Origin: Flavobacteriales bacterium
GTDB taxonomy: Bacteria; Bacteroidota; Bacteroidia; JACJYZ01
Assembly: GCA_020435415.1 (NCBI GenBank)
Contig: JAGQZQ010000002.1
Span: 26,301 to 90,300 of the forward strand
Length of the DNA: 64,000 bases
Direction of reading: 5' to 3'
Shown here one piece after another: positions 12,040 to 22,119 of this stretch. The notes beneath the pieces are model-generated. The model was not told where the DNA came from, did no database searches, and saw only the letters and a program-made list of their open reading frames with translations. The translations under genes were made by a program, and so were the position numbers. Every line of letters starts with the position of its first letter. The stretch's first letter is position 1.

Positions 12040-13299
12040 TTACTCCGGAGATTGTTCTACTTTCTTTTCACCATGTTCGTATTCGGCTTCTTCAGTCAGG
12101 TGGCCTTCTTCATCAAACACCCTATAGGTACCATGAGGTTCACCTTTATCGTCATAGCTCATACTTGCCTTGGTGGTGCCATCCGGGTAATAGACCACCC
12201 ATTGACCCGATCTGACGCCGTTGGCAAAATTACCCTTTCTGTTCAAACTTCCATCGGGGTGGTAAAAAAACCACATTCCGCTTTCCTTTCCTTCTGAAAA
12301 AGAGCCGGTTTGTTTCGGTTTCCCATTCGGATAATACAGGAGCCATTCTCCGGTGTACATGCCCTTGCTATATTGGCCCTGCATATATAATTGCCCGTTT
12401 GGATGATAGAAGTACCATACTCCATCACGTTCTCCGTTTACATAATGCCCTTTTTCATACGGTATTTCCTTTTTCCCAGAGGCTGAATCGACCGTTGCAC
12501 TGTAGAAAGACTCATACAATCCTTCGATCTTATTATGGACATAATTGCACCTGTTCATCAATGAACCGTCGGGATGGAAGCCCTGAAACGGACCATGAAG
12601 CTGACCGTTTTCGTAGAAGCATATCTTTTGAACACTGCCGTCGGGACCATCCTTGTAATAACCGGTAAACAAACTATCATATACGCCGTTACGCTTAAAT
12701 GATTTTTCACGGATATGACCGTTATCAAACCAAACCTGCTGGGAGCCCTGTTCTAAATCATGTCTTATGGTTTTGATAAAATGCCTGTTTCCATTTTCGA
12801 AATAAGACTCCGATTCACCGTGCAGATGCCCATCCACGTAATCGGTTTTCTCACGAAGTGAACCATCCTCATAAAATATTTTCACCTCTCCGTTGACAAG
12901 ATCATTTTTATAGGGTATCTCCTGATAAAGTGATCCGCTTTCATAATACACCTTTAACCGCCCCTGCAATCTTCCTTGCTCATATGGAAGTTGCTGCTTC
13001 AGCTTTCCATTGTAATGGTAGTCCTTCCAGATACCAACCATATTGCCATGCTCATACGTTCCTTCCTGCCAAAGCGTGCCGTTGTCATAATAGATCCGGT
13101 ATTCACCATGACGCACATTCTTACCATCTGCGTCCTCATACGTCCAGGTTTCCCTGACCTGGCCGGGCACATCATCATAATAAGTGGTTTCTGTATGTTG
13201 CGCCTTTATTTCCGCCCCACACACAAAGGTGCAGACCACAAAAAGGATAATGGATTTCAGAAAAAATGGATGATAATAGGTCACGGCATATTTATTCAA
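12040..13299 (-). CDS. MORN-variant (YwqK-like) repeat protein with N-terminal signal/TM
   Basis: About 14 tandem ~23-aa repeats of pattern G.W..YYpNG.L...G.Y.NG..HG. Confidence 0.65.
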   Translation of the reverse strand: MNKYAVTYYHPFFLKSIILFVVCTFVCGAEIKAQHTETTYYDDVPGQVRETWTYEDADGKNVRHGEYRIYYDNGTLWQEGTYEHGNMVGIWKDYHYNGKLKQQLPYEQGRLQGRLKVYYESGSLYQEIPYKNDLVNGEVKIFYEDGSLREKTDYVDGHLHGESESYFENGNRHFIKTIRHDLEQGSQQVWFDNGHIREKSFKRNGVYDSLFTGYYKDGPDGSVQKICFYENGQLHGPFQGFHPDGSLMNRCNYVHNKIEGLYESFYSATVDSASGKKEIPYEKGHYVNGERDGVWYFYHPNGQLYMQGQYSKGMYTGEWLLYYPNGKPKQTGSFSEGKESGMWFFYHPDGSLNRKGNFANGVRSGQWVVYYPDGTTKASMSYDDKGEPHGTYRVFDEEGHLTEEAEYEHGEKKVEQSPE

Positions 13300-14122
13300 T
13301 CATGATCTGAACCGCCTCCAGCGCCGAACGATGGCCATAATCCAGAACAGCTGCCAGGGCATACTTCCGGCCTTTCTTGATATCCGACTTTGGAATGGTA
13401 AGTTTGAAAACCCCTTTACTTCCAGGCACCAGCGTTTTCTTGGTGGGTGAATAGCGGATCTCTTCTCCTGACTGGATGTCGGCCAGCACCAGATAGACTT
13501 TGGACTCCAACATTTTATCACCGGAATTCATCACTTCTACTTCGAATTCTCTTGAGGCAGGGTCTTTTGAGATCGGTAGCTCAGTCAGGTTCTGAATTTT
13601 TCCCTGGAAATTCGTATTGGATTTGGGAGACTGGCTTACAAAGATCACGATTCGCGGTTTCAGGAGCACACCGGCTGCCACGTTCTTATCTACATCCAGC
13701 GAAGTACGCTCTGTGGCAGCTTGTACATAAATAATTCCCCACCGGGTTTCCGAACCGTTCTTTGGTACGGTCATGATCACATTCACTTCAGCTTCTTCAT
13801 TGGGTTTCAACTCCAGAAAACCAGGATTCACGCTGATCCAGTCCGCACAACTTCTCGATGCTGTTCCTGGAGGCAGTCGTTTCTTTTCTCCGTTATCATC
13901 CACCTCATAATCACCCAATTTGAATTCAAAATGCTGGGTTGTATTGGCATGATTCCGGATCAATACTTTTTCCGTGGCGATCCCTCCGGGCTCCACCGAA
14001 AAGTTCAACACCACCGGCGACACCTCAAAATCCTGGGTATATGCAGTGACATGTACCAGGAGCATGGCTAAAACAAACGCCCATTTTATGCGGATTTCAA
14101 CATTTTTGATCATCATGGTCAT
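13292..14122 (-). CDS. Secreted ~250-aa two-beta-domain protein of unknown family. Speculatively a periplasmic Ig-fold chaperone-like protein.
   Basis: Signal peptide (KWAFVLAMLLVHVTAYTQ) and a beta-rich alternating pattern. It overlaps the start of the MORN gene by 8 nt (same minus-strand operon) and is divergent from the 14387-18847 cluster. Confidence 0.4.
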   Translation of the reverse strand: MTMMIKNVEIRIKWAFVLAMLLVHVTAYTQDFEVSPVVLNFSVEPGGIATEKVLIRNHANTTQHFEFKLGDYEVDDNGEKKRLPPGTASRSCADWISVNPGFLELKPNEEAEVNVIMTVPKNGSETRWGIIYVQAATERTSLDVDKNVAAGVLLKPRIVIFVSQSPKSNTNFQGKIQNLTELPISKDPASREFEVEVMNSGDKMLESKVYLVLADIQSGEEIRYSPTKKTLVPGSKGVFKLTIPKSDIKKGRKYALAAVLDYGHRSALEAVQIMIE

Positions 14123-14356
14123 AGGTCAATAATACACATTTGTGATTTTCAAAGATAATGATTCATGTGCTCAACAACAGTAATCGTTTATGCAAAGAAA
14201 AACTTACAAATTATCGGGTTAATTGGTTGATTAATCGAAACTTTTGCGGAAAACATACCCAAAAATACATATCCATCAACACTTTACGTAACCCGTCTGG
14301 AACATTACCAGTATAAACCACTGCATTGGTGTCCAAACCAAAAAACCAAATTGTAT

Positions 14357-14383
14357 AACAAACAAACAAACAAACAAACAAAC
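14357..14383 (+). repeat. (CAAA)6-7 tetranucleotide SSR ending 3 nt before the ATG at 14387
   Basis: aacaaacaaacaaacaaacaaacaaac read directly. The ORF-track TTG start at 14351 would translate the repeat (NKQTNKQT), but the signal peptide begins at MKRNLLF. Confidence 0.9.
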
Positions 14384-14386
14384 GTT

Positions 14387-15091
14387 ATGAAAAGGAACTT
14401 ACTGTTTATTGGTATGCTGGGTATTATATCCCAGGTATCTTTCGGACAGGCTGTAAGGGATAGACAAGTGATTCCTGTAGCCGTTAACTTGAACCAGGTA
14501 TTGCGTATGACCATTACGAATGGCGGCAATATCGAGTTCGTATTTAATACCATCGATGATTATAAGAATGGTTTATCTGGGGACCAGGGTACATCATCTT
14601 CTGCGAACCCTGCAGCTTCCGAGCCTTTCTATAAGTCAGACTTCACCGTAGCTTCTTCCACCCGTTGGAAAGTGACCTATGGTTCAGAGGAAGCCACTTT
14701 CATCGGAACCGATAATCCGGCCAATACACTGGCACTTGATAATGTTGGCTTTACCATCGTAAACGGTGGTGGACACAACTTTGAAGGTACAGGTCTGGCC
14801 AAGGCAACCACCGCGGGTGCAGAGCTTTTCAGCACACCTACGGACAATGCCAATACCGGAACCGCGCTACAGGCGTATCCCGTTGACCTGATTGAGGACA
14901 ATGATGATGCGACCAGCGCCAACGCCGGTGATGCCACCGACAACTCTTTCCAGTTGGTATGGCGCTGCGGAACCGCAGAGGCCTTCACAGTGAATCCGAT
15001 GAATACGGTCAAGCTGATCGATCAGCAACCGTCTCCAACACCGGATCGCTATGTGACCAATGTGTTGTTCGAATTGGCCATTGACAACTAA
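14387..15091 (+). CDS. Secreted protein of unknown family (candidate fibre/pilin-like subunit A)
   Basis: Signal peptide MKRNLLFIGMLGIISQVSFGQA and a Gly/Thr/Asn/Asp-rich beta-type composition. Motif NIEFVFNTIDDYKNG is shared with the downstream paralog, and the C-terminus has an alternating hydrophobic strand (YVTNVLFELAI). Confidence 0.5.
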   Translation: MKRNLLFIGMLGIISQVSFGQAVRDRQVIPVAVNLNQVLRMTITNGGNIEFVFNTIDDYKNGLSGDQGTSSSANPAASEPFYKSDFTVASSTRWKVTYGSEEATFIGTDNPANTLALDNVGFTIVNGGGHNFEGTGLAKATTAGAELFSTPTDNANTGTALQAYPVDLIEDNDDATSANAGDATDNSFQLVWRCGTAEAFTVNPMNTVKLIDQQPSPTPDRYVTNVLFELAIDN

Positions 15092-15115
15092 TCCAACAAT
15101 TCGTTATGCGAAGGG

Positions 15116-15150
15116 ACCAGCCGTACTTAACTGTGCGGCTGGTTTCTCGT
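15116..15150 (+). terminator. Hairpin accagccg-N12-cggctggt plus weak T tract between the two subunit-like genes (possible attenuator)
   Basis: 8-bp perfect stem read directly. The T tract is short. Confidence 0.35.
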
Positions 15151-15206
15151 ATAATACTTCAAGTTTCGAGACCAGTCCGTGATCACTAAAAACTGAACAC
15201 AGGAAA

Positions 15207-15773
15207 TTGAAAGGCATGGTCAAATTATCACTGGTATTGCTGCTTACAACATTCGGGTTAAGTGCCTATGCACAAGACTGGAACACCGCACGGTTGAGTA
15301 TACTTTCAGGAGGAAATATTCCCTTCTATTTCAATACCCTTGACAAATACAATAGCGGTATTGAAGTAACCAACGGCACCGTGCTTGGTATCAATATCGC
15401 AGATTTGCCCACAGATCCGCCAACCCCGAATTCAACACTCGTAGGCTGGTCTCTTGAATTCAATTCCTACAATGGTGCCACGGATCTTCAGGGCAGCGGT
15501 GCAAACACACTGCCGCTGAATACCATTCAACTTGAGGCCACCAACAACATTGGCCTGGATCCGGCTGACGCCACCTACTACGGACTAAAAGACCTGACCG
15601 TAGCCGGTGAAGTTCTGATGGAAACAACCAATGCGGCACACTTGAACTGTGACTGGACAACCCACCAGGTAAATATCACATACCAGGCAGGAATGGCGAA
15701 TGGAAGTTTGTTGGGAGAAACACCGGATTATTATGTCGTGGAAATTGAGATCATTCTTATTCCACAATTTTGA
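15207..15773 (+). CDS. Secreted protein, paralog of 14387..15091 (candidate subunit B)
   Basis: Signal peptide LSLVLLLTTFGLSAYAQ. Motif NIPFYFNTLDKYNSG parallels NIEFVFNTIDDYKNG, and the C-terminal strand is YYVVEIEIILIPQF. Confidence 0.5.
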   Translation: MKGMVKLSLVLLLTTFGLSAYAQDWNTARLSILSGGNIPFYFNTLDKYNSGIEVTNGTVLGINIADLPTDPPTPNSTLVGWSLEFNSYNGATDLQGSGANTLPLNTIQLEATNNIGLDPADATYYGLKDLTVAGEVLMETTNAAHLNCDWTTHQVNITYQAGMANGSLLGETPDYYVVEIEIILIPQF

Positions 15774-15790
15774 TTGACTGGTCCTAAAAA

Positions 15791-18700
15791 ATGAAAAAGC
15801 GCATCCTCCACTTAACAAGCCTCCTGCTGTTTGCTACGGCGGGTGTTCTGCTTGCCCAGGATACGCTGAACACAAACCCTGCGCCTGGCGAGACCATTGA
15901 CAGTACCAACACAACACCACCAGACTCTGCGGGAACAGCAAAAAAAGAGGACCCTAACAAGGTACTCGTCTTCACGCGCGATCATATCGAACAAAGCGCA
16001 GATTCTACCTTTTTTAATGTATTAAAGGTCAAGAACACATCATCTGAACCGATGACAGGAACCATAGAGTTCTTTGTCCCTTTCGGTTGGGGAATCGCAT
16101 ACACACCCAAGGCAAGGTATACCATCGCTCCCGGACAAACAGAATACATTCCATTCAGATTATCTATCCCGGGAGAAGCAAAGGGCGGAATGGCACATGT
16201 GGTTAACGTTACCTTCAGAACCAACCAGGCACTATACTCCGAGAATTGCTATATCAAAATCATACGAAAGAGCAGGTGGAGCTTAAGCACCAATGCCAAC
16301 GTGGTTTACTTCAATGCCTACTATAACGACGTTCAATTCAAGGTCATCTTGTCTAACAAAGGGAATACACCAGAGGTGGTTTACCTGCAATTTGATGTTG
16401 GCAAAAATCTGATCATGCCGGAATTCAACGGTGTAAAGAATGCCAGATACGTGGAACTACCACCCTACACCGATACCACGCTGACCTTTGCCGTGGGAGG
16501 TGCTATGAAGGATGAAGATACCCCCTCATACCTTGAACAGATATGGAAAGAATCAACGGTGACCATTAATGCTTCGACAGACTACACCAAACTCAAGGAA
16601 ACGATCTGGTTCAAAAAAGTGGATAGCGAATATATCAACACCAAAGAGCAATCTGCGTCGCCATTGAATGCTGAAGTTCAGTTTTACAACCTGATGAGCA
16701 CGGCTCAACCAAGAATCAATACTTCCGTATTCGGGTCTGTGCTGTTTCCGGAGTCCAGGGAAGTCAATTATCTGGTGAATGCCAGAAATATTCCCTTTTC
16801 CCCTGGAGGAAGCAGAAGTGGTATATTCGTTGAACCTCAGAATTTAACGGCCTATGTACGTTACCGCGATACCAAATGGAATGTGATTGCCGGGGAAAAC
16901 ATTATTTCAACGGGTATCTTCAATTCCAGCGGTAGAGGCGTATCTGCCAACTACAAATTTAACAGGGACTACGATGTATACGCTTCCGCCTTTCAAAACA
17001 CCCTGTATCCCATCTATAACTATTCGGTCGGAGGAAGCGCCCTGGTATTAAAAAAGTTTCGGGTTAGCAGTGGTCTGAGTTATGAAGACAACCAGCGGAA
17101 CAGTACTTCTTCCCTCGCTTATCAATTGATGACCGGCACGACGCTTTTCAAAAAGCATTCCATCAACGGCGGTGTGATCCTGGGGCGCTCCACATTTAAC
17201 AAAACCCCTACCATTCCATCTTCATTTGACACAACCCTGTATGGATTCCGATACCGTCTCTCGTACAACTTCTCGGGAACCAAACTAAAGGTGAATGCCA
17301 CCACCACCGGAAGCACCAGGTACTTTGCACGTGGTGGCGGAAACTCAAATGCCAGGGCTGCATTCATGTATATGCTGGATAAGAAAAAGAGGGTGAATCT
17401 CATTTATGATCGCTATGGTCAAATGGCCAGCAGATTTCCGGATATTCTGTATTATGATGGCAACCGGTTCGACCATGATATGGTTCGGTTGACATTATCC
17501 GAAAACCGCAGTCAGAATTTGTATATAGAAACCGGTCCCACAGCCCGCCGTACAAAACGGTCTGCATACTATCCCGCTTACAATTTCACCACCCGTACCC
17601 TGAACACTTATGCCGGCATGTATATTTCAGCCAGGTACAGCATCTCCAACACTCAATCAATCACACCCACGGCCATTGCGGGATATTCATTCATTAAGGA
17701 AACCAATTTCGATTCCGTGCAGGTTTTTACTCCGGACAGGGGCATCTTCAGCACGAATTTAAGTCTGAGCTATCGCATGCGTCACTGGACCTTAGGCGCC
17801 TATTATGTTTACGGATCACTGAATATTGTAGATGCCCAATACCTGATCCAGACCGGTAAAATGAATCAGGTATTTTATCTGCGTCCCAACTACGAGCGTT
17901 GGTTGCGGAACAGGACCCTGAAGATCTCACTGTACATGAATTACAGCATCAGAATGCCTTCTAACCGCGAAAACAGCAGCATGAGCGCCCGCATTGACGT
18001 GTTCTCAAAGAAAGGTTGGATATTCTATGGCATGGGCAATGCCTTTATCAATTCATGGACGGATATAGAAGAAGGAAGACAATCCTATAAGACTTACAAT
18101 TTCTCCCTTGGTGTGAGAAAATCATTTGACCTGCCCCAGCCCCGGTTGAAATATTACAATGTAAAAGTAGTATGCTTCCGTGACGTAAACGGAAACAAAA
18201 AGAAGGATGAAGGTGAGCCTATGATCGCTAATATCCTGACAGACATCAAACGCCTGGAATATGACAAAGCCCGTGGTCATGGTAACTTTGCCCAGATGGA
18301 ATTGCTCACCGGACCCAATGGTGAGATTAACTATTACAATCTGCCGGAAGGAAGCTACCGCCTTACATTCCTGCCGCTGACCAACCTCGGGGATCTGTAT
18401 AATGTGAATGGTGACAAGCAGACCATTGTGGTGAAAAGTCACACCACGGTTTACATTCCTTTTGCCGCATCCTACAAGATCAAAGGAAAGATCGTGCTGT
18501 TAAGGGATAAATTCAGCAGCGACGGCGCCATCAATGTGGAAGGTATACGCGTGACCGCAACGGGTCAGAATGGTGATACTTATAGTGTTCTGACCGACAA
18601 AAACGGAGAGTATATATTGAACGTACCCCAGGCGGGCTATTTCACGGTGAAAGTAAATAACATCTTTGGTGACCGGTTCAAATCGGACAAGGAAGAATTC

Positions 18701-18847
18701 CTGATTGAGTTCAATGGTTTTGATACCTTTAATGTGGACTTCACTTTCACGGAGAAGAAACGCCAGATCAATCTGCAGGGAGGCGATTACCAATTCCAGT
18801 TCCTGAAGGGAGATAATCAGGAAGAAGATGATGATGGCGGAGAATAA
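15791..18847 (+). CDS. 1018-aa secreted/outer-membrane protein of unknown family (candidate usher-like assembly platform)
   Basis: Signal peptide. The N-terminal ~250 aa are Ig-like. The central ~500 aa are rich in Y/F/N/S/T/R alternations typical of an OM beta-barrel. The C-terminal ~250 aa resemble a carboxypeptidase-regulatory-like beta-sandwich, with an acidic tail. Confidence 0.45.
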   Translation: MKKRILHLTSLLLFATAGVLLAQDTLNTNPAPGETIDSTNTTPPDSAGTAKKEDPNKVLVFTRDHIEQSADSTFFNVLKVKNTSSEPMTGTIEFFVPFGWGIAYTPKARYTIAPGQTEYIPFRLSIPGEAKGGMAHVVNVTFRTNQALYSENCYIKIIRKSRWSLSTNANVVYFNAYYNDVQFKVILSNKGNTPEVVYLQFDVGKNLIMPEFNGVKNARYVELPPYTDTTLTFAVGGAMKDEDTPSYLEQIWKESTVTINASTDYTKLKETIWFKKVDSEYINTKEQSASPLNAEVQFYNLMSTAQPRINTSVFGSVLFPESREVNYLVNARNIPFSPGGSRSGIFVEPQNLTAYVRYRDTKWNVIAGENIISTGIFNSSGRGVSANYKFNRDYDVYASAFQNTLYPIYNYSVGGSALVLKKFRVSSGLSYEDNQRNSTSSLAYQLMTGTTLFKKHSINGGVILGRSTFNKTPTIPSSFDTTLYGFRYRLSYNFSGTKLKVNATTTGSTRYFARGGGNSNARAAFMYMLDKKKRVNLIYDRYGQMASRFPDILYYDGNRFDHDMVRLTLSENRSQNLYIETGPTARRTKRSAYYPAYNFTTRTLNTYAGMYISARYSISNTQSITPTAIAGYSFIKETNFDSVQVFTPDRGIFSTNLSLSYRMRHWTLGAYYVYGSLNIVDAQYLIQTGKMNQVFYLRPNYERWLRNRTLKISLYMNYSIRMPSNRENSSMSARIDVFSKKGWIFYGMGNAFINSWTDIEEGRQSYKTYNFSLGVRKSFDLPQPRLKYYNVKVVCFRDVNGNKKKDEGEPMIANILTDIKRLEYDKARGHGNFAQMELLTGPNGEINYYNLPEGSYRLTFLPLTNLGDLYNVNGDKQTIVVKSHTTVYIPFAASYKIKGKIVLLRDKFSSDGAINVEGIRVTATGQNGDTYSVLTDKNGEYILNVPQAGYFTVKVNNIFGDRFKSDKEEFLIEFNGFDTFNVDFTFTEKKRQINLQGGDYQFQFLKGDNQEEDDDGGE

Positions 18848-18854
18848 CCGTGCC

Positions 18855-19280
18855 TTACAGATTGAATTTATCCGCTACAAGTTTCCTGCAGTATTCCCTT
18901 ATCTCATCTCTTGTATCAGCGAATGCCTTTTTGATCTCCCCTTCTGACCCTGTTGCCTTTGCGGGATCCGTAAAGCTGTGATGCACCCTTTCCGCTTCAG
19001 TTGGAAACCATGGACAATTCTCACGTGCATGATCACACACGGTAATAACCAGATCAAACGGCACTTCCCGATATTCATCAATATGATTAGATGTGTGTCC
19101 GGAGATATCGATATGATCCTCCGCCATGGTTTCTATAGCCCTTGGATTTACGCCATGGGTTTCAATGCCTGCACTGTAAATGGCATGTTTTCCTCCCGTA
19201 AAATGCCTGAGGTAGCCTTCGGCGATCTGACTTCTGCAGGAATTTCCCGTGCATAAAACCAGAATATTCTTCCTATTCAT
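18855..19280 (-). CDS. arsC: Arsenate reductase, LMW-PTP family (thioredoxin-coupled)
   Basis: CTGNSCRS P-loop plus downstream Cys residues. It is the last gene of the ars operon. Confidence 0.85.
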   Translation of the reverse strand: MNRKNILVLCTGNSCRSQIAEGYLRHFTGGKHAIYSAGIETHGVNPRAIETMAEDHIDISGHTSNHIDEYREVPFDLVITVCDHARENCPWFPTEAERVHHSFTDPAKATGSEGEIKKAFADTRDEIREYCRKLVADKFNL

Positions 19281-19283
19281 TTA

Positions 19284-19955
19284 TTAAGCGTTATTATCAT
19301 TAATGGTATGTTTTGACTGTAAAAAACGGCAAAGCAGAACGGCAGTGGCAACTCCGGCTAGCGGTCCTGCCAGATAAATCCAGAAGCCATTCCAATGCCC
19401 CGACATAATTGCGGGTCCCAGTGTTCTGGCTGGATTCATGGAAGCCCCGGTAACAGGTCCGCCAAATAATGCCCCAATCGTTACCGTTGCGCCTATTGCA
19501 ATGGCTGCGGTAATGCCCTTTTCTTTTGCGCCGGTTGATACCGAAAGAATCACCATCATCAGGACAAATGTCAGGATAACTTCCACGCCCAATCCGGTGA
19601 AGTACCTGTCATTGACAGGGATCGTCTCTCCAAACGTAGCTGTTTCTGGAAACAACAACCACAACAATGCGCTTGCTGCAATCGCACCAATACCCTGCGC
19701 CAGGATATACATGGATACTTGTGATCCGGGAAATCGTCCTGCCAGACTAAACCCAATCGTTACAGCAGGATTCAGGTGTGCACCGGAAATATCACCCACC
19801 GCATAAATCATCACCATCACGATCAGACCAAACATAGCGGAGATACCGATATGCCCTAGCAATTCTCCGTAAATGCTGTTAATAACCACCGCCCCGGTGC
19901 CAAAGAACACCAGGGCGAAGGTTCCGATCAATTCAGCCACCCACTGACGTTTCAT
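19284..19955 (-). CDS. MIP-family aquaglyceroporin (AqpS-like arsenite channel)
   Basis: Two NPA boxes (HLNPAVT, NPAR) and six TM segments. Its 4-nt start overlap with the arsM stop indicates an operon. Confidence 0.8.
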   Translation of the reverse strand: MKRQWVAELIGTFALVFFGTGAVVINSIYGELLGHIGISAMFGLIVMVMIYAVGDISGAHLNPAVTIGFSLAGRFPGSQVSMYILAQGIGAIAASALLWLLFPETATFGETIPVNDRYFTGLGVEVILTFVLMMVILSVSTGAKEKGITAAIAIGATVTIGALFGGPVTGASMNPARTLGPAIMSGHWNGFWIYLAGPLAGVATAVLLCRFLQSKHTINDNNA

Positions 19956-20788
19956 GCGCAGCAGCCATCACCACAGCATGCTTCCGCTTTTCTTCCGAAA
20001 ACTGTAATGCTGTATATTCCGGTACTGCCCGAACGAAACGTTTCGATCTGATCCTTATCCATGTATTTTAAAAGAATATCATCAGGAATAAAGATGACCT
20101 TTTCCTTTTGGACCGTAATGTCTACAAATCCTGCTTTGCTGATTAAATCCAGATACGTGCCTTTCTGGATGGCACCGGATACACAACCGGCATACATCTC
20201 CGCAGCCTGCCTGATAGCTTCAGGTAATTCGCCTTCCAATACAATATCCGAAACGCTGAAGTGACCTCCCACCTTCATGATCCGGAACATTTCCGAAAAC
20301 ACGCGGGGTTTATCCGGTACCAGGTTCAGCACGCAATTGCTGACCACCACATCTGCCATTTCAGATTTCATCGGGATATTCTCCAGATCGCCAAGGCGGA
20401 ACTCAACGTTACCATAATCCAACTTGGCGGCATTGGCTTTTGCCTTGGTGATCATGGCCTCAGAGAAGTCGATACCGATCACACGCCCGTCGGCACCCGT
20501 GGCAGCCCTTGCCACAAAGGCATCGTTACCTGCTCCGGATCCAAGATCCACAACAGTATCACCCTCCTTAATTCCGGCGAATTCCGTTGGGAGTCCACAC
20601 CCGAGGCCCAGATCCGCATCAGGAACATACCCATCCATTGGGCTGTAGTCATCAGTCATTATATTATACACTTCGGTGGAGCATTCACCCGCTCCGCAAC
20701 ATGAGGACCGGTTTACGGATACCTCCTGGTTCGCAATGGCCGTATACTTCTGACGGACCATTTCCTTTAGTTCATTATTATCATTCAT
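19952..20788 (-). CDS. arsM: Arsenite S-adenosylmethionine methyltransferase
   Basis: SAM-binding VVDLGSGAG motif, N-terminal Cys pair (SSCCGAGEC) and a C-terminal Cys-rich tail characteristic of ArsM. Confidence 0.8.
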   Translation of the reverse strand: MNDNNELKEMVRQKYTAIANQEVSVNRSSCCGAGECSTEVYNIMTDDYSPMDGYVPDADLGLGCGLPTEFAGIKEGDTVVDLGSGAGNDAFVARAATGADGRVIGIDFSEAMITKAKANAAKLDYGNVEFRLGDLENIPMKSEMADVVVSNCVLNLVPDKPRVFSEMFRIMKVGGHFSVSDIVLEGELPEAIRQAAEMYAGCVSGAIQKGTYLDLISKAGFVDITVQKEKVIFIPDDILLKYMDKDQIETFRSGSTGIYSITVFGRKAEACCGDGCCA

Positions 20789-20818
20789 AACATCGCATTT
20801 AGACGATTATACATAAGC

Positions 20819-21148
20819 TCAGCAACAATCCTTCATGGATGGCTTCACATTGAAGAAAGCTTCAAATATTTCCCTGGACTTCCCCCAGGCCTCCAGATCA
20901 ATACAATAGCACACACTCTTCCCATCTACGTTCCCTTTAATAAGACCTGCGCTCTTTAATTCCTTGAGGTGCTGAGAAACGGTAGATTGCGATAAAGGCA
21001 TCTCATTCACAATGTCTCCGCAGTAACAGGATTCCTGTTCAAGCAAAAACCTCAAAATAGCCACTCTTGCAGGATGTGACAACGCTTTTGCAATCACTGC
21101 TATCCGGTTATCCCGAAGACTAAATTCATCTGACTTTGATATTCCCAT
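20819..21148 (-). CDS. arsR: ArsR/SmtB family metalloregulator
   Basis: HTH with a CxC metalloid-binding motif (ESCYCGDIV) immediately before the recognition helix. It is the first gene of the operon. Confidence 0.8.
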
Positions 21149-21558: not shown

Positions 21559-22119
21559 ATGGAAGGAACGATTGGAGAAATCAGAATGTTCGGGGGAAAC
21601 TTTGCCCCGCGTACCTGGGCCCTGTGTGATGGTCAACTGTTACCCATCTCACAAAACACAGCGCTGTTCTCAATACTGGGAACCACCTACGGAGGAGACG
21701 GACGAACCACTTTTGCCTTGCCCGATATGAGGGGAAGGGTAGCCGTTCACGCCGGAAGCGGCCCCGGTTTATCAACTTACAGGCTCGGACAAAAAGGTGG
21801 AATTGAGCAAACCACATTAAACGTATTGAACATGCCGTCACACAATCACACGGCTGTTCCAAACCTGACCACCACGGTACAGGTAAACAATTCCGATGGA
21901 GAAGACACACGCCCGAATGGAAACTTTCTTGGACAACCTACCTCAGGTGACCTTTACATTGATTCGGCCGGAAGTAATCAAAAACTGGGTGGAGTAGCCA
22001 CCTCCGGCACCGTGGACATTGGCAACAATGGCGGCAGTCAACCATTCAGCAATGTACAGCCGTTCTGTACGGTGAATTACATCATTTGCCTGATGGGTAT
22101 TTTTCCTTCAAGAAACTAA
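21559..22119 (+). CDS. Phage tail collar domain protein (MdpB-like 'microcystin-dependent protein')
   Basis: N-terminal MEGTIGEIRMFGGNFAPRTWALCDGQLLPISQNTALFSILGTTYGGDG matches the Phage_Tail_Collar consensus. Confidence 0.8.
   Translation: MEGTIGEIRMFGGNFAPRTWALCDGQLLPISQNTALFSILGTTYGGDGRTTFALPDMRGRVAVHAGSGPGLSTYRLGQKGGIEQTTLNVLNMPSHNHTAVPNLTTTVQVNNSDGEDTRPNGNFLGQPTSGDLYIDSAGSNQKLGGVATSGTVDIGNNGGSQPFSNVQPFCTVNYIICLMGIFPSRN

Follow-up and report, generated by a model that had tools for sequence, protein, structure and literature searches.

A five-gene Bacteroidota cluster as a candidate for building donor-strand-exchange pili of the TLP-1 type

Results

A conserved five-gene cluster outside the known pilus families

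In a 64,000-nucleotide stretch of Flavobacteriales DNA (contig JAGQZQ010000002.1; hereafter the window), we identified a five-gene cluster, A, B, C1, C2 and D, which we interpret as encoding a donor-strand-exchange pilus of the TLP-1 type made by a chaperone-usher-like pathway whose components lie outside the known families. We assign this reading a probability of roughly 0.7. The fibre-building function is inferred and not demonstrated, as no experiment ties the genes to a fibre. An undescribed, chaperone-usher-like pathway for making pili remains the best reading of the locus. The initial annotation of this DNA had proposed a candidate undescribed fibre-assembly system with chaperone/subunit/usher-like architecture, and this core reading survived all tests run. 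The features of the locus are as follows.

12040..13299, minus strand: A, a 419-aa secreted MORN_2 (YwqK-like) repeat protein (Pfam MORN_2, E 1.7e-47)
13292..14122, minus strand: B, a 276-aa (NCBI: 274 aa) periplasmic two-domain Ig-like protein
14150..14157, minus strand: Bacteroidota-type -7 promoter box (TATCTTTG), from a pattern scan, consensus match only
14357..14383, plus strand: (AACA)6.8 simple repeat (TRF), located 5' of C1 in an A-rich leader, with its end 4 nt upstream of the ATG
14387..15091, plus strand: C1, a 234-aa putative major fibre subunit that is homologous to the TLP-1a/b protomer
15103..15155, plus strand: RNA hairpin directly 3' of C1 (region MFE -43.2 kcal/mol, z = -5.75)
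15207..15773, plus strand: C2, a 188-aa putative minor subunit, paralog of C1 without the 13-residue N-terminal donor strand
15791..18847, plus strand: D, a 1018-aa predicted outer-membrane protein

The open reading frames of B, C1, C2 and D delimited in the initial annotation are present at these positions, but the conserved genes number five and not four, the MORN-repeat gene being added to the module. The basic and hydrophobic N-termini of B, C1, C2 and D are typical of Sec signal peptides, no lipobox cysteine was found in the first 40 residues of any of them, and Por_Secre_tail stayed below the Pfam/NCBIfam cut-off in all, in agreement with the reported lack of a T9SS C-terminal domain. 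Sec would be the route of all five proteins across the inner membrane. Pfam and NCBIfam scans of the five proteins and of the family alignments returned only MORN_2 in A above threshold. The statement that the secreted proteins belong to no recognisable family is thus correct for these thresholds in B, C1, C2 and D, but the subunit does have a solved relative, TLP-1.

C1, C2 and D were linked in all 56 loci (56/56), always with C2 between C1 and D, and the genes co-occur across many Bacteroidota, a point that the initial annotation had suggested checking. A and B were adjacent to the cluster in 27 of 35 surveyed loci, and the genes flanking the cluster varied from locus to locus. In the other eight loci, neither A nor B was present within some 3 kb, and no diverged B or A was found in them even at relaxed HMM thresholds; in these loci, B is perhaps unlinked or not needed. 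Within Bacteroidota, to which the system is confined, the family is present in at least 159 species genomes (GTDB). Neither of the two outcomes named as refuting the initial proposal, matches to unrelated characterised families or a lack of conserved co-occurrence, was encountered.

Gene A lies downstream of B and overlaps its end by 8 nt. We regard the two as co-transcribed and A as a conserved accessory gene of the module, the secreted product of which would act in a role that is unknown. Orthologs of A adjoin B in all five other fully examined loci carrying B (L001, L003, L004, L007 and L008), whereas gene A is missing from the TLP-1-like loci described below.

C1 is homologous to the TLP-1 protomer

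TLP-1a/b are fibrils from pond water whose structures were determined by cryo-EM (PDB 9IKJ/9IKK; CryoSeek, Wang et al. PNAS 2024; PMC11494351). They polymerise by insertion of the N-terminal β1 strand into the β2/β7 cleft, with exchange between protomers n and n+4, giving an 8-nm helical tubule with a 15-Å lumen (PMC11494351); we read the n+4 exchange as four parallel donor-strand-linked strands. Their organism, genes and assembly machinery remained unidentified in that study, metagenomics and mass spectrometry having failed to find them (PMC11494351).

When the C-family profile was compared with the whole PDB, only 9IKK and 9IKJ were matched. Alignment of the mature C1 family to the TLP-1-like family with hhalign gave 95.2% (E 2.9e-8) over 200 columns, end to end, as against 0.2% for the reversed control, and a TLP-1b fragment used as the query retrieved C1 ORFs alone among 1915 locus ORFs. 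Judged by these sequence comparisons, C1 is homologous over its full length to the TLP-1 protomer (9IKJ/9IKK). The two have the same mature length, an N-terminal donor-strand segment, an F-V-F core motif and a C-terminal Y-x-x-N-V-x-F strand. In the window protein, the donor strand is predicted to be formed by the mature N-terminus (QAVRDRQVIPVAVNL...) and the groove-edge strand by the C-terminal stretch (...PDRYVTNVLFELAIDN). Since identity to TLP-1 is only about 22–30%, C1 belongs to a different subfamily and its quaternary structure may differ from that of TLP-1. The C1 family comprises 896 clusters at 55–84% identity. A Pfam search with 14 C proteins gave no match at E<=10, including to Fimbrial (PF00419), SCPU (PF05229) and WxL, and hhalign of the C family against FimA gave 3%, a null result from a weak test with a single E. 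coli template.

The expectation that the small proteins are donor-strand-exchanging subunits is therefore met by homology to the TLP-1 cryo-EM fibre, not by direct structure. On this homology, C1 is predicted to polymerise by donor-strand exchange via its N-terminal extension: the protein would have an incomplete Ig-like fold, and in the fibre a second C1 would supply its N-terminal strand (VIPVAVNL) to fill the β2/β7 groove.

In metagenomic loci whose subunit gene is about 70% identical to TLP-1, the gene order is again chaperone-like protein, major subunit, minor subunit and barrel. The C1 of locus L100 matches 9IKJ over its full length at E 8e-79. In L100 and L104, the TLP-1-like C1 is accompanied by B (E 1e-36 to 1e-37), a C2-like gene and D (E 7e-98 and 3e-112); in L095 and L102, C1 is joined by a C2-like gene and D (to E 6e-95), with no B visible, and B adjoins C1 in L090 and L108 (to E 4e-42). 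Proteins near TLP-1 are, by sequence, encoded in the same B/C1/C2/D cluster type. These loci differ from that of the window in that the N-terminus encoded by the C2-like gene is longer and contains Cys, and that D ends in a SPOR-like tail.

C2 lacks the donor segment

C2 is 22% identical to C1, with F-x-F-N-T and C-terminal Y-x-V-x-[IV] motifs in common, and the longer motif that had been noted in both small proteins was confirmed (NIEFVFNTIDDY in C1, NIPFYFNTLDKY in C2). The spacing from the mature Q to F-x-F is 30 aa in 84/84 C1 and 16–17 aa in 58/61 C2; correspondingly, the 13-aa donor segment is present in every C1 (84/84) and missing from 58 of 61 C2. With a groove and no donor strand, C2 could therefore be placed only at the distal end of the fibre, and it is predicted to be a tip or initiator subunit that accepts a strand and is unable to donate one.

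B has a PapD-like and WxLIP-like fold

The AF2 model of B (pLDDT 91) has a two-domain PapD-like fold, and Foldseek gave a probability of 1.0 to WxLIP, CfaA, CsuC, Caf1M and FimC. The fold is that of an L-shaped two-domain chaperone, and chaperone-usher chaperones of every class were matched; the top match was WxLIP (E 3e-10), which was also matched when bound to long WxL. The structural comparison that had been suggested for this protein thus agrees with its description as a two-domain, chaperone-like protein. At the sequence level, no significant match to PapD_N or PapD_C was found in B. A PDB sequence search gave nothing useful with B alone and only FaeE (E about 0.2) with the B profile; the motif NPSFLELKPNE...VPK...W aligns with this chaperone, a resemblance at the motif level only (E 0.24). 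Alignment of the B family to FimC with hhalign gave 0.2%, again with one E. coli sequence as a weak template. The window B scores 15.9 bits against WxLIP_PGBD, below the cut-off of 27.3, whereas matches of up to E 1.5e-6 occur among members of its family, one of which is named a DUF916 protein by NCBI. On the strength of the model, B is a candidate pilus chaperone with a PapD-like/WxLIP-like fold. In the periplasm it would cap the C1 groove and keep subunits assembly-competent; that it chaperones both C1 and C2 is an inference.

D is a predicted barrel flanked by Ig-like domains

The AF2 model of D (pLDDT 76, pTM 0.48), made from an 8-sequence alignment, consists of a signal peptide and disordered linker (1–53), two Ig-like domains (~59–282), a barrel of ~26 strands (~289–782) and SdrD_B-like and CarboxypepD_reg-like beta-sandwiches (~788–988). 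In this model no domain is inserted in the barrel and no plug is seen. N-terminal Ig-like domains, a central segment resembling an outer-membrane barrel and a C-terminal beta-sandwich region had been proposed for this protein, and the model reproduces them. Relatives of D carry OmpA and SPOR tails, so the termini are taken to be periplasmic. The family is large, with no annotation at all and 709 or more clusters at 50% identity; a word-based single-sequence search recovered only 8 relatives, a sensitivity artefact, as an exhaustive profile search found hundreds. No usher-specific similarity was detected in D, which is not a member of Usher (PF00577), and hhalign of the D family against FimD was null, the single E. 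coli template once more making a weak test. PDB sequence searches yielded nothing useful with D alone and only the SdrD B-domain with the D profile.

From the modelled architecture, D is a candidate pore for secretion and assembly, comparable to an usher. With Ig-like domains in the periplasm on either side of the barrel, it would take B-subunit complexes and let the subunits polymerise and exit, although its role as the conduit is inferred. How an 8-nm, four-strand TLP-1 tubule would be assembled at one pore of this size is hard to explain, which counts against our best reading.

Promoter, repeat and hairpin

The -7 box is located some 30 nt 5' of the B start and is a candidate promoter of the B-A transcript, by consensus match only. 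A simple repeat had been placed at the start of the first subunit gene; it is present, but in the 5' leader, outside the ORF called by NCBI. Among 81 further loci checked, none showed an (AACA)n repeat upstream of C1, so that of the window is lineage-specific, and there is no evidence that it has a function. A conserved phase-variation switch at this repeat was rejected on the same absence, and no evidence of switching was found.

The terminator-like hairpin reported between the two subunit genes is real by folding energy and z-score, but the terminator scan did not call it and it has no U-tail. Strong hairpins of unrelated sequence were found at the equivalent position in those related loci that were folded (L001, L003, L004, L006 and L007); that of L006 is followed by a U-run, unlike that of the window. 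The hairpin is a candidate attenuator, partial terminator or mRNA stabiliser, and its inferred effect is on subunit stoichiometry, by which C1 would be kept in excess over C2 and D.

Discussion

Comparison with known pilus and surface systems

The resemblance to chaperone-usher pili is one of architecture. The domain layout of D parallels that of ushers overall (AF2, pLDDT 76), but ushers have a 24-strand barrel with an inserted plug, a periplasmic NTD, CTD1 and CTD2, whereas the D model has about 26 strands and no visible plug, and two N-terminal Ig domains stand in place of the NTD. The cluster does not belong to the Usher, PapD_N/C, Fimbrial or SCPU families of the Fim/Pap, CFA/I and Csu/CupE systems. 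In those systems the chaperone is of the PapD_N/PapD_C families and holds the C-terminus of the subunit with Arg/Lys residues of its cleft. The analogy to archaic (Csu/sigma) loci drawn in the initial annotation has no sequence backing, with zero Usher, PapD_N, SCPU and Fimbrial matches and null hhalign results in the weak test against single E. coli templates (FimD, FimC and FimA). The exchange also differs: it runs from n+1 to n along a single chain in chaperone-usher pili and from n+4 to n in the TLP-1 tubule. Type V pilins are protease-processed lipoproteins that need neither chaperone nor usher. The type V (FimA/Mfa) pili of Bacteroidia are from the same phylum and, like the fibre proposed here, are built by strand exchange, but the proteins here have no lipobox and no FimA/Mfa family match. 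Cyanobacterial tubular (CT) pili of Microcystis, from a different phylum, come from a comparable gene set, a cluster in which a pilin gene and a pilin-like gene are joined by one for an outer-membrane porin, for which a role analogous to that of an usher has been proposed (PMC12397347); TLP-1 is not mentioned in that paper (PMC12397347).

The closest solved structure to B comes from the WxL/WxLIP (DUF916-DUF3324) clusters of Enterococcus, Lactobacillus and Listeria. WxLIP has two roughly perpendicular Ig-like domains, is predicted to insert strands into its WxL partners and is described as a surface anchor, not as a chaperone (PMC10599100). It has a C-terminal transmembrane helix, in contrast to B, whose sequence stops with the second domain and which falls below the WxLIP_PGBD cut-off. 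The WxL domain of the partners is absent from the C proteins, and C profiles miss the WxL chain of 9i25. WxL systems are monoderm, with no outer-membrane component and no fibre described, whereas the cluster here includes the D barrel.

Alternative explanations

In a rival reading, C1 might be exported via D and polymerise by itself outside the cell, with B (and A) as a periplasmic or surface anchor or adaptor; we consider this unlikely, without dismissing it. TasA fibres and archaeal cannulae self-polymerise outside the cell by donor-strand exchange. Donor-strand polymerisation without a chaperone exists (PMC12518558), and the reading would fit the eight of 35 loci without adjacent B and A, a best Foldseek match interpreted as an anchor binding WxL proteins (PMC10599100) and a four-strand n+4 architecture that is hard to thread through one pore. 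However, B accompanies C1 in most loci, including the distant L007 and L008 and the TLP-1-like loci, its fold is matched to every chaperone class with a Foldseek probability of 1.0, and an incomplete Ig fold needs protection while crossing the periplasm of a diderm. Somewhat less probable again is a surface adhesin complex resembling WxL clusters, in which B binds C1 and C2 by strand insertion, the envelope is covered with the resulting oligomers instead of long pili, and D is an outer-membrane anchor or exporter. WxLIP, alone and with long WxL, does top the Foldseek matches of B, WxLIP_PGBD matches occur in the B family, with one member named a DUF916 protein, and the gene sets correspond in having a single two-domain Ig protein with two small secreted paralogs (PMC10599100). 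Yet C1 has end-to-end homology with a protein seen as micrometre-scale fibrils, the C proteins match neither the WxL Pfam family nor PDB WxL chains at E<=10, B has no C-terminal transmembrane helix, and a donor segment invariant in C1 and absent in C2 fits the logic of a polymer.

D as a nutrient transporter, TonB-dependent or Sus-like, with the small proteins as surface substrate-binding proteins, was already disfavoured, and we find it very improbable: no Plug, TonB_dep_Rec or SusD match was found in D, 46 D relatives or the neighbouring genes, the N-terminus of D consists of Ig-like domains without a plug, the C proteins have no lipobox, unlike SusD/E/F-type surface lipoproteins, and C1 is a homolog of the TLP-1 fibre protein.

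Implications

TLP-1a/b were presented as a showcase of 'structure first' discovery of abundant environmental fibrils, and no later paper filling the gap in their organism, genes or assembly was found in the literature searched. The TLP-1 protomer family is now placed in a conserved Bacteroidota cluster with a candidate chaperone, tip subunit and outer-membrane pore, and since candidate components are named, the question of TLP-1 biogenesis becomes directly testable. The n+4 exchange brings with it a mechanistic puzzle, that of a four-strand tubule and a pore of this size. In structure, the resemblance of B to WxLIP gives a hint of common ancestry with the enterococcal and listerial WxL surface systems. 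We see an even chance that the cluster type represents a distinct class of pilus biogenesis found throughout Bacteroidota ('TLP-type pili'), in which Pfam-less pilins, a WxLIP/PapD-like chaperone and a new pore family (~26 strands, no usher sequence relation) together build tubular, multi-strand, donor-strand-linked fibres. If true, this class would show from which phylum the orphan TLP-1 fibrils come, which genes encode them and what machinery probably makes them, and it would suggest that the Gram-positive WxL/WxLIP clusters are relatives, in monoderms, of the same chaperone-subunit module. The cluster would also give Bacteroidota, a phylum believed to depend on type V (lipoprotein) pili, a pathway of the chaperone-usher-like kind.

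A conserved five-gene module includes four secreted proteins outside standard families

The locus had been read in the initial annotation as a four-gene cluster of secreted proteins that belong to no standard family and might assemble a surface fibre in a chaperone/subunit/usher-like manner. All four open reading frames (ORFs) are present where they had been placed and encode a chaperone-like protein (B), two small secreted paralogs (C1 and C2), and a barrel protein (D). The proposed Sec signal peptides are supported by basic and hydrophobic signal-peptide-like N-termini on all four proteins, none of which contains a lipobox, and all of them fall below the Pfam and NCBIfam cut-offs, in agreement with the initial reading. 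Sub-threshold matches were obtained to Ig-like and PapD-like-clan families for B and to SdrD_B, CarboxypepD_reg, and NPCBM_assoc for D. C1 and C2 do share a motif, which reads NIEFVFNTIDDY in the former and NIPFYFNTLDKY in the latter. The cluster is conserved, but the module consists of five genes rather than four, with the MORN-repeat gene (A) included.

Features of the locus (positions in the window)
12040-13299, minus strand: A, MORN-repeat gene, overlapping the end of B by 8 nt
13292-14122, minus strand: B, chaperone-like protein, 276 aa
~30 nt upstream of B, minus strand: Bacteroidota-type -7 box TATCTTTG
14357-14383: (AACA)6.8 repeat, ending 4 nt before the C1 ATG
14387-15091, plus strand: C1, small secreted protein, 234 aa
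15103-15155: strong hairpin directly after the C1 stop codon, z -5.75
15207-15773, plus strand: C2, small secreted protein, 188 aa
15791-18847, plus strand: D, barrel protein, 1018 aa

A word-based search with D as query retrieved eight proteins, and on all eight contigs small-subunit genes were followed by D amid unrelated flanking genes. Homologs of B (~265 aa) and A (~400 aa) were present on all but one of these contigs, usually divergent from C1-C2-D and co-linear in L007. An exhaustive profile search (E<=1e-30) yielded 709 representative clusters with full-length matches for the D family; the B family comprised 274 clusters and the C1 family 896, the top 120 of which were at 55-84% identity and all unannotated. 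C1 was found in 159 genomes when one genome per GTDB species was scanned, and the genome bins behind the 80/80 retrieved C1 loci were all Bacteroidota, with Paludibacter, Crocinitomix, Putridiphycobacter, and further Bacteroidales and Flavobacteriales among them. Co-occurrence of the genes across related genomes, on which the fibre proposal had been made to depend, was confirmed with an HMM for each of the five families: C1, C2, and D followed one another in this order in all 56 loci with enough sequence. A and B adjoin C1-C2-D in 27 of 35 loci, either upstream of C1 in divergent orientation or downstream of D in convergent orientation. In the other eight (L033-L037, L051, and L066, of Paludibacter/Porphyromonadaceae type, plus L006), even relaxed HMM thresholds revealed neither gene within ~3 kb of C1-C2-D in either direction.

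Variant layouts were also observed. In two distant versions of the cluster, three small subunit genes of ~165-177 aa replace the C1/C2 pair in L007 (6197-7913) and a single 150-aa subunit replaces it in L008 (2052-2504), so that subunit number and size vary across the wider family. A Flavobacteriales genome bin (L070, 4744-13634) displayed an apparent tandem partial duplication in the order A, B, C1, truncated C2, truncated A, B, C1, C2, D, with identical HMM scores for both B copies and likewise for both C1 copies; either a recent duplication or an artefact of assembly could account for this arrangement.

The region immediately past D contains an arsenic-resistance-like operon (18855-21148, minus strand) encoding an LMW-phosphatase-type ArsC, a MIP-family channel, an ArsM-like SAM methyltransferase, and an ArsR-type HTH regulator. 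These same genes also follow the cluster in a 65%-identical locus, L001, but do not do so in more distant loci, and we therefore place them outside the module. A 186-aa ORF (21559-22119, plus strand; MEGTIGEIRMFGGNFAPRTWALCDGQ...) precedes a periplasmic-binding-protein-like ORF, and its syntenic counterpart in L001 bears a phage tail-collar (PF07484) domain.

C1 is related to the TLP-1 fibril protomers

Among the 177,635 distinct sequences of the PDB searched, a profile of the small proteins matched only 9IKK (E 0.04) and 9IKJ (E 0.19), in two collinear segments, one at the N-terminal strands and the other at the C-terminal strand. The two structures, TLP-1b and TLP-1a respectively, are 8-nm helical tubules that were obtained from the water of Tsinghua Lotus Pond and determined de novo by cryo-EM. 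Protomer n has its Ig-like fold completed by beta1, the N-terminal strand of protomer n+4, and neither the source organism nor the genes could be identified by the authors (PMC11494351). When the aligned 61-residue TLP-1b fragment was compared with the 1915 ORFs of the collected loci, only C1 ORFs matched, and the same fragment recovered 22 loci at 61-75% identity from JGI metagenomes. The TLP-1-like protein of L100 matched 9IKJ over the whole mature chain (E 8e-79). Furthermore, mature C1 (n=78) and mature TLP-1-like proteins (n=18) aligned from end to end in a profile-profile comparison (200 columns, probability 95.2%, E 2.9e-8), against 0.2% for the reversed control. These comparisons demonstrate, at the level of sequence, that C1 is homologous to the TLP-1 protomer family, the subunit family that TLP-1 and the window cluster have in common.

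TLP-1-like genes sit in the same type of cluster, though no single short contig shows everything. L100 and L104 contain B (E 2e-37 and 5e-36), a TLP-1-like C1, a C2-like gene, and D (E 7e-98 and 3e-112); L095 and L102 contain C1, a C2-like gene, and D (E 7e-104 and 6e-95), with B not in view; in L090 and L108, B (E 2e-36 and 4e-42) stands immediately before C1. A Bacteroidota source is indicated for L100 by the T9SS sorting domain (Por_Secre_tail, 42.5 bits versus a cut-off of 27) at the end of its upstream neighbour. This contig also carries a Uma2-family endonuclease gene between B and C1 (6862-7461) and, immediately after D, a 530-aa protein (13076-14668) that contains four prolyl-isomerase domains of FKBP type and could be an additional periplasmic folding factor of the TLP-1-like subfamily.

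C2 lacks the donor segment

The F-x-F core motif lies at a distance of exactly 30 residues from the Gln predicted to start the mature protein in 84/84 C1 proteins, and of 16-17 residues in 58 of 61 C2 proteins. The 13 residues missing from C2 (AVRDRNVIPVAVN) are the counterpart of the TLP-1 donor strand, and the groove-edge C-terminal strand is retained. C2 would accept a strand but could not donate one, and would thus be confined to one end of a polymer built by donor-strand exchange, the place taken in chaperone-usher pili by the tip adhesin or initiator.

Predicted folds of B and D

The AF2 model of B (76-sequence alignment, pLDDT 91.3) contains two beta-sandwich domains, and is weak only in a loop (residues ~141-160) that leads into the final long strand of domain 1. 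The structural comparison suggested in the initial annotation, run with Foldseek on this model, did find chaperone folds: behind the best matches, to WxLIP, come CfaA, CsuC, CupB2, Caf1M, and FimC (E 1e-8 to 1e-6, probability 1.0). The TM-scores of the Foldseek matches are moderate (0.43-0.55). As modelled, B has the two-domain pilus-chaperone fold. Two stretches of B aligned with pilus chaperones without reaching significance: NPSFLELKPNE...VPK...W (residues 97-128) with FaeE TPSFFKVKPNGQ...LPKDKESVYW (E 0.24), and the invariant C-terminal AA(V/I)LDYGH (residues 256-264) with FimC TINDYGA (hhalign). Judged from sequence, these motifs may be remnants of ancestry common with PapD-family chaperones.

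For D, the AF2 model rests on an alignment of only eight sequences (pLDDT 76, pTM 0.48). It predicts a disordered segment (1-53), two Ig-like domains (~59-282), ~26 long strands without an inserted domain (289-782, mostly pLDDT 85-95), and two beta-sandwiches (~788-988). The suggestion that D is usher-like holds for this layout but not for usher-specific features or a visible plug, neither of which is seen, and D is on this model an outer-membrane barrel with no usher signature. Some homologs, including P0006 and P0007, have C-terminal SPOR-like or OmpA peptidoglycan-binding domains (alignment columns ~1340-1471), and others reach 1200-1400 aa with extra N-terminal regions. Within the family, the outer-membrane component is modular.

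Sequences flanking C1

The annotated hairpin between the subunit genes is indeed present. It has no U-tail and was not called by a terminator scan. Hairpins of unrelated sequence occupy the same place after C1 in L001, L003, L004, L006 (with a U-run), and L007, which fits attenuation or transcript stabilisation favouring the major subunit, for which there are no experimental data. The simple repeat assigned to the start of C1 exists, as (AACA)6.8, but it ends before the ATG and is found in this genome only among 82 loci compared upstream of C1. In all 82, the leaders are uniformly A/T-rich and without a Shine-Dalgarno sequence, as is typical of Bacteroidota, and the tract resembles a leader of this kind that has expanded locally.

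A donor-strand-exchange pilus as the favoured reading

We favour, with a probability of about 0.68, biogenesis of a TLP-1-type donor-strand-exchange pilus that works like the chaperone-usher pathway. In this scheme C1 would be the subunit that polymerises and C2 would form the tip or act as initiator; B would serve as chaperone in the periplasm and D as assembly pore in the outer membrane, with A an accessory of unknown role. Every one of these functional roles is only inferred; homology, folds, architecture, the donor segment missing in C2, and gene linkage are what has been demonstrated. Open problems for the pilus reading are the absence of usher-specific features and of a visible plug in D, the loci without an adjacent B, and the four-strand (n+4) tubule assembly, which is hard to explain. 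The eight loci without nearby A or B would suit self-assembly without a chaperone, in which B serves as an anchor, yet the pilus-chaperone fold predicted for B speaks against this, and we consider it unlikely. That the genes build a WxL-like surface complex instead of a fibre appears somewhat less probable still, and a nutrient transporter is very improbable.

Judged by sequence, the cluster does not belong to the classical, alternate, or archaic chaperone-usher families, and it likewise falls outside type V pili, WxL clusters, and TonB/Sus systems. No paper was found that ties TLP-1 to genes or machinery, or that treats this Bacteroidota cluster; coverage of the literature was incomplete, so earlier descriptions are possible.

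A pilus of the kind we favour would have its operating logic in common with chaperone-usher pili but not its sequence families. The best Foldseek matches of B were to recently deposited E. faecium structures (E 3e-10; PDB 9i1y and 9i25, including a complex with 'long WxL') of WxLIP, the two-domain Ig-like protein of Gram-positive WxL clusters. This model-based match hints that the Gram-positive WxL and Bacteroidota clusters share an ancestral module, a two-domain Ig protein with strand-complemented partners.
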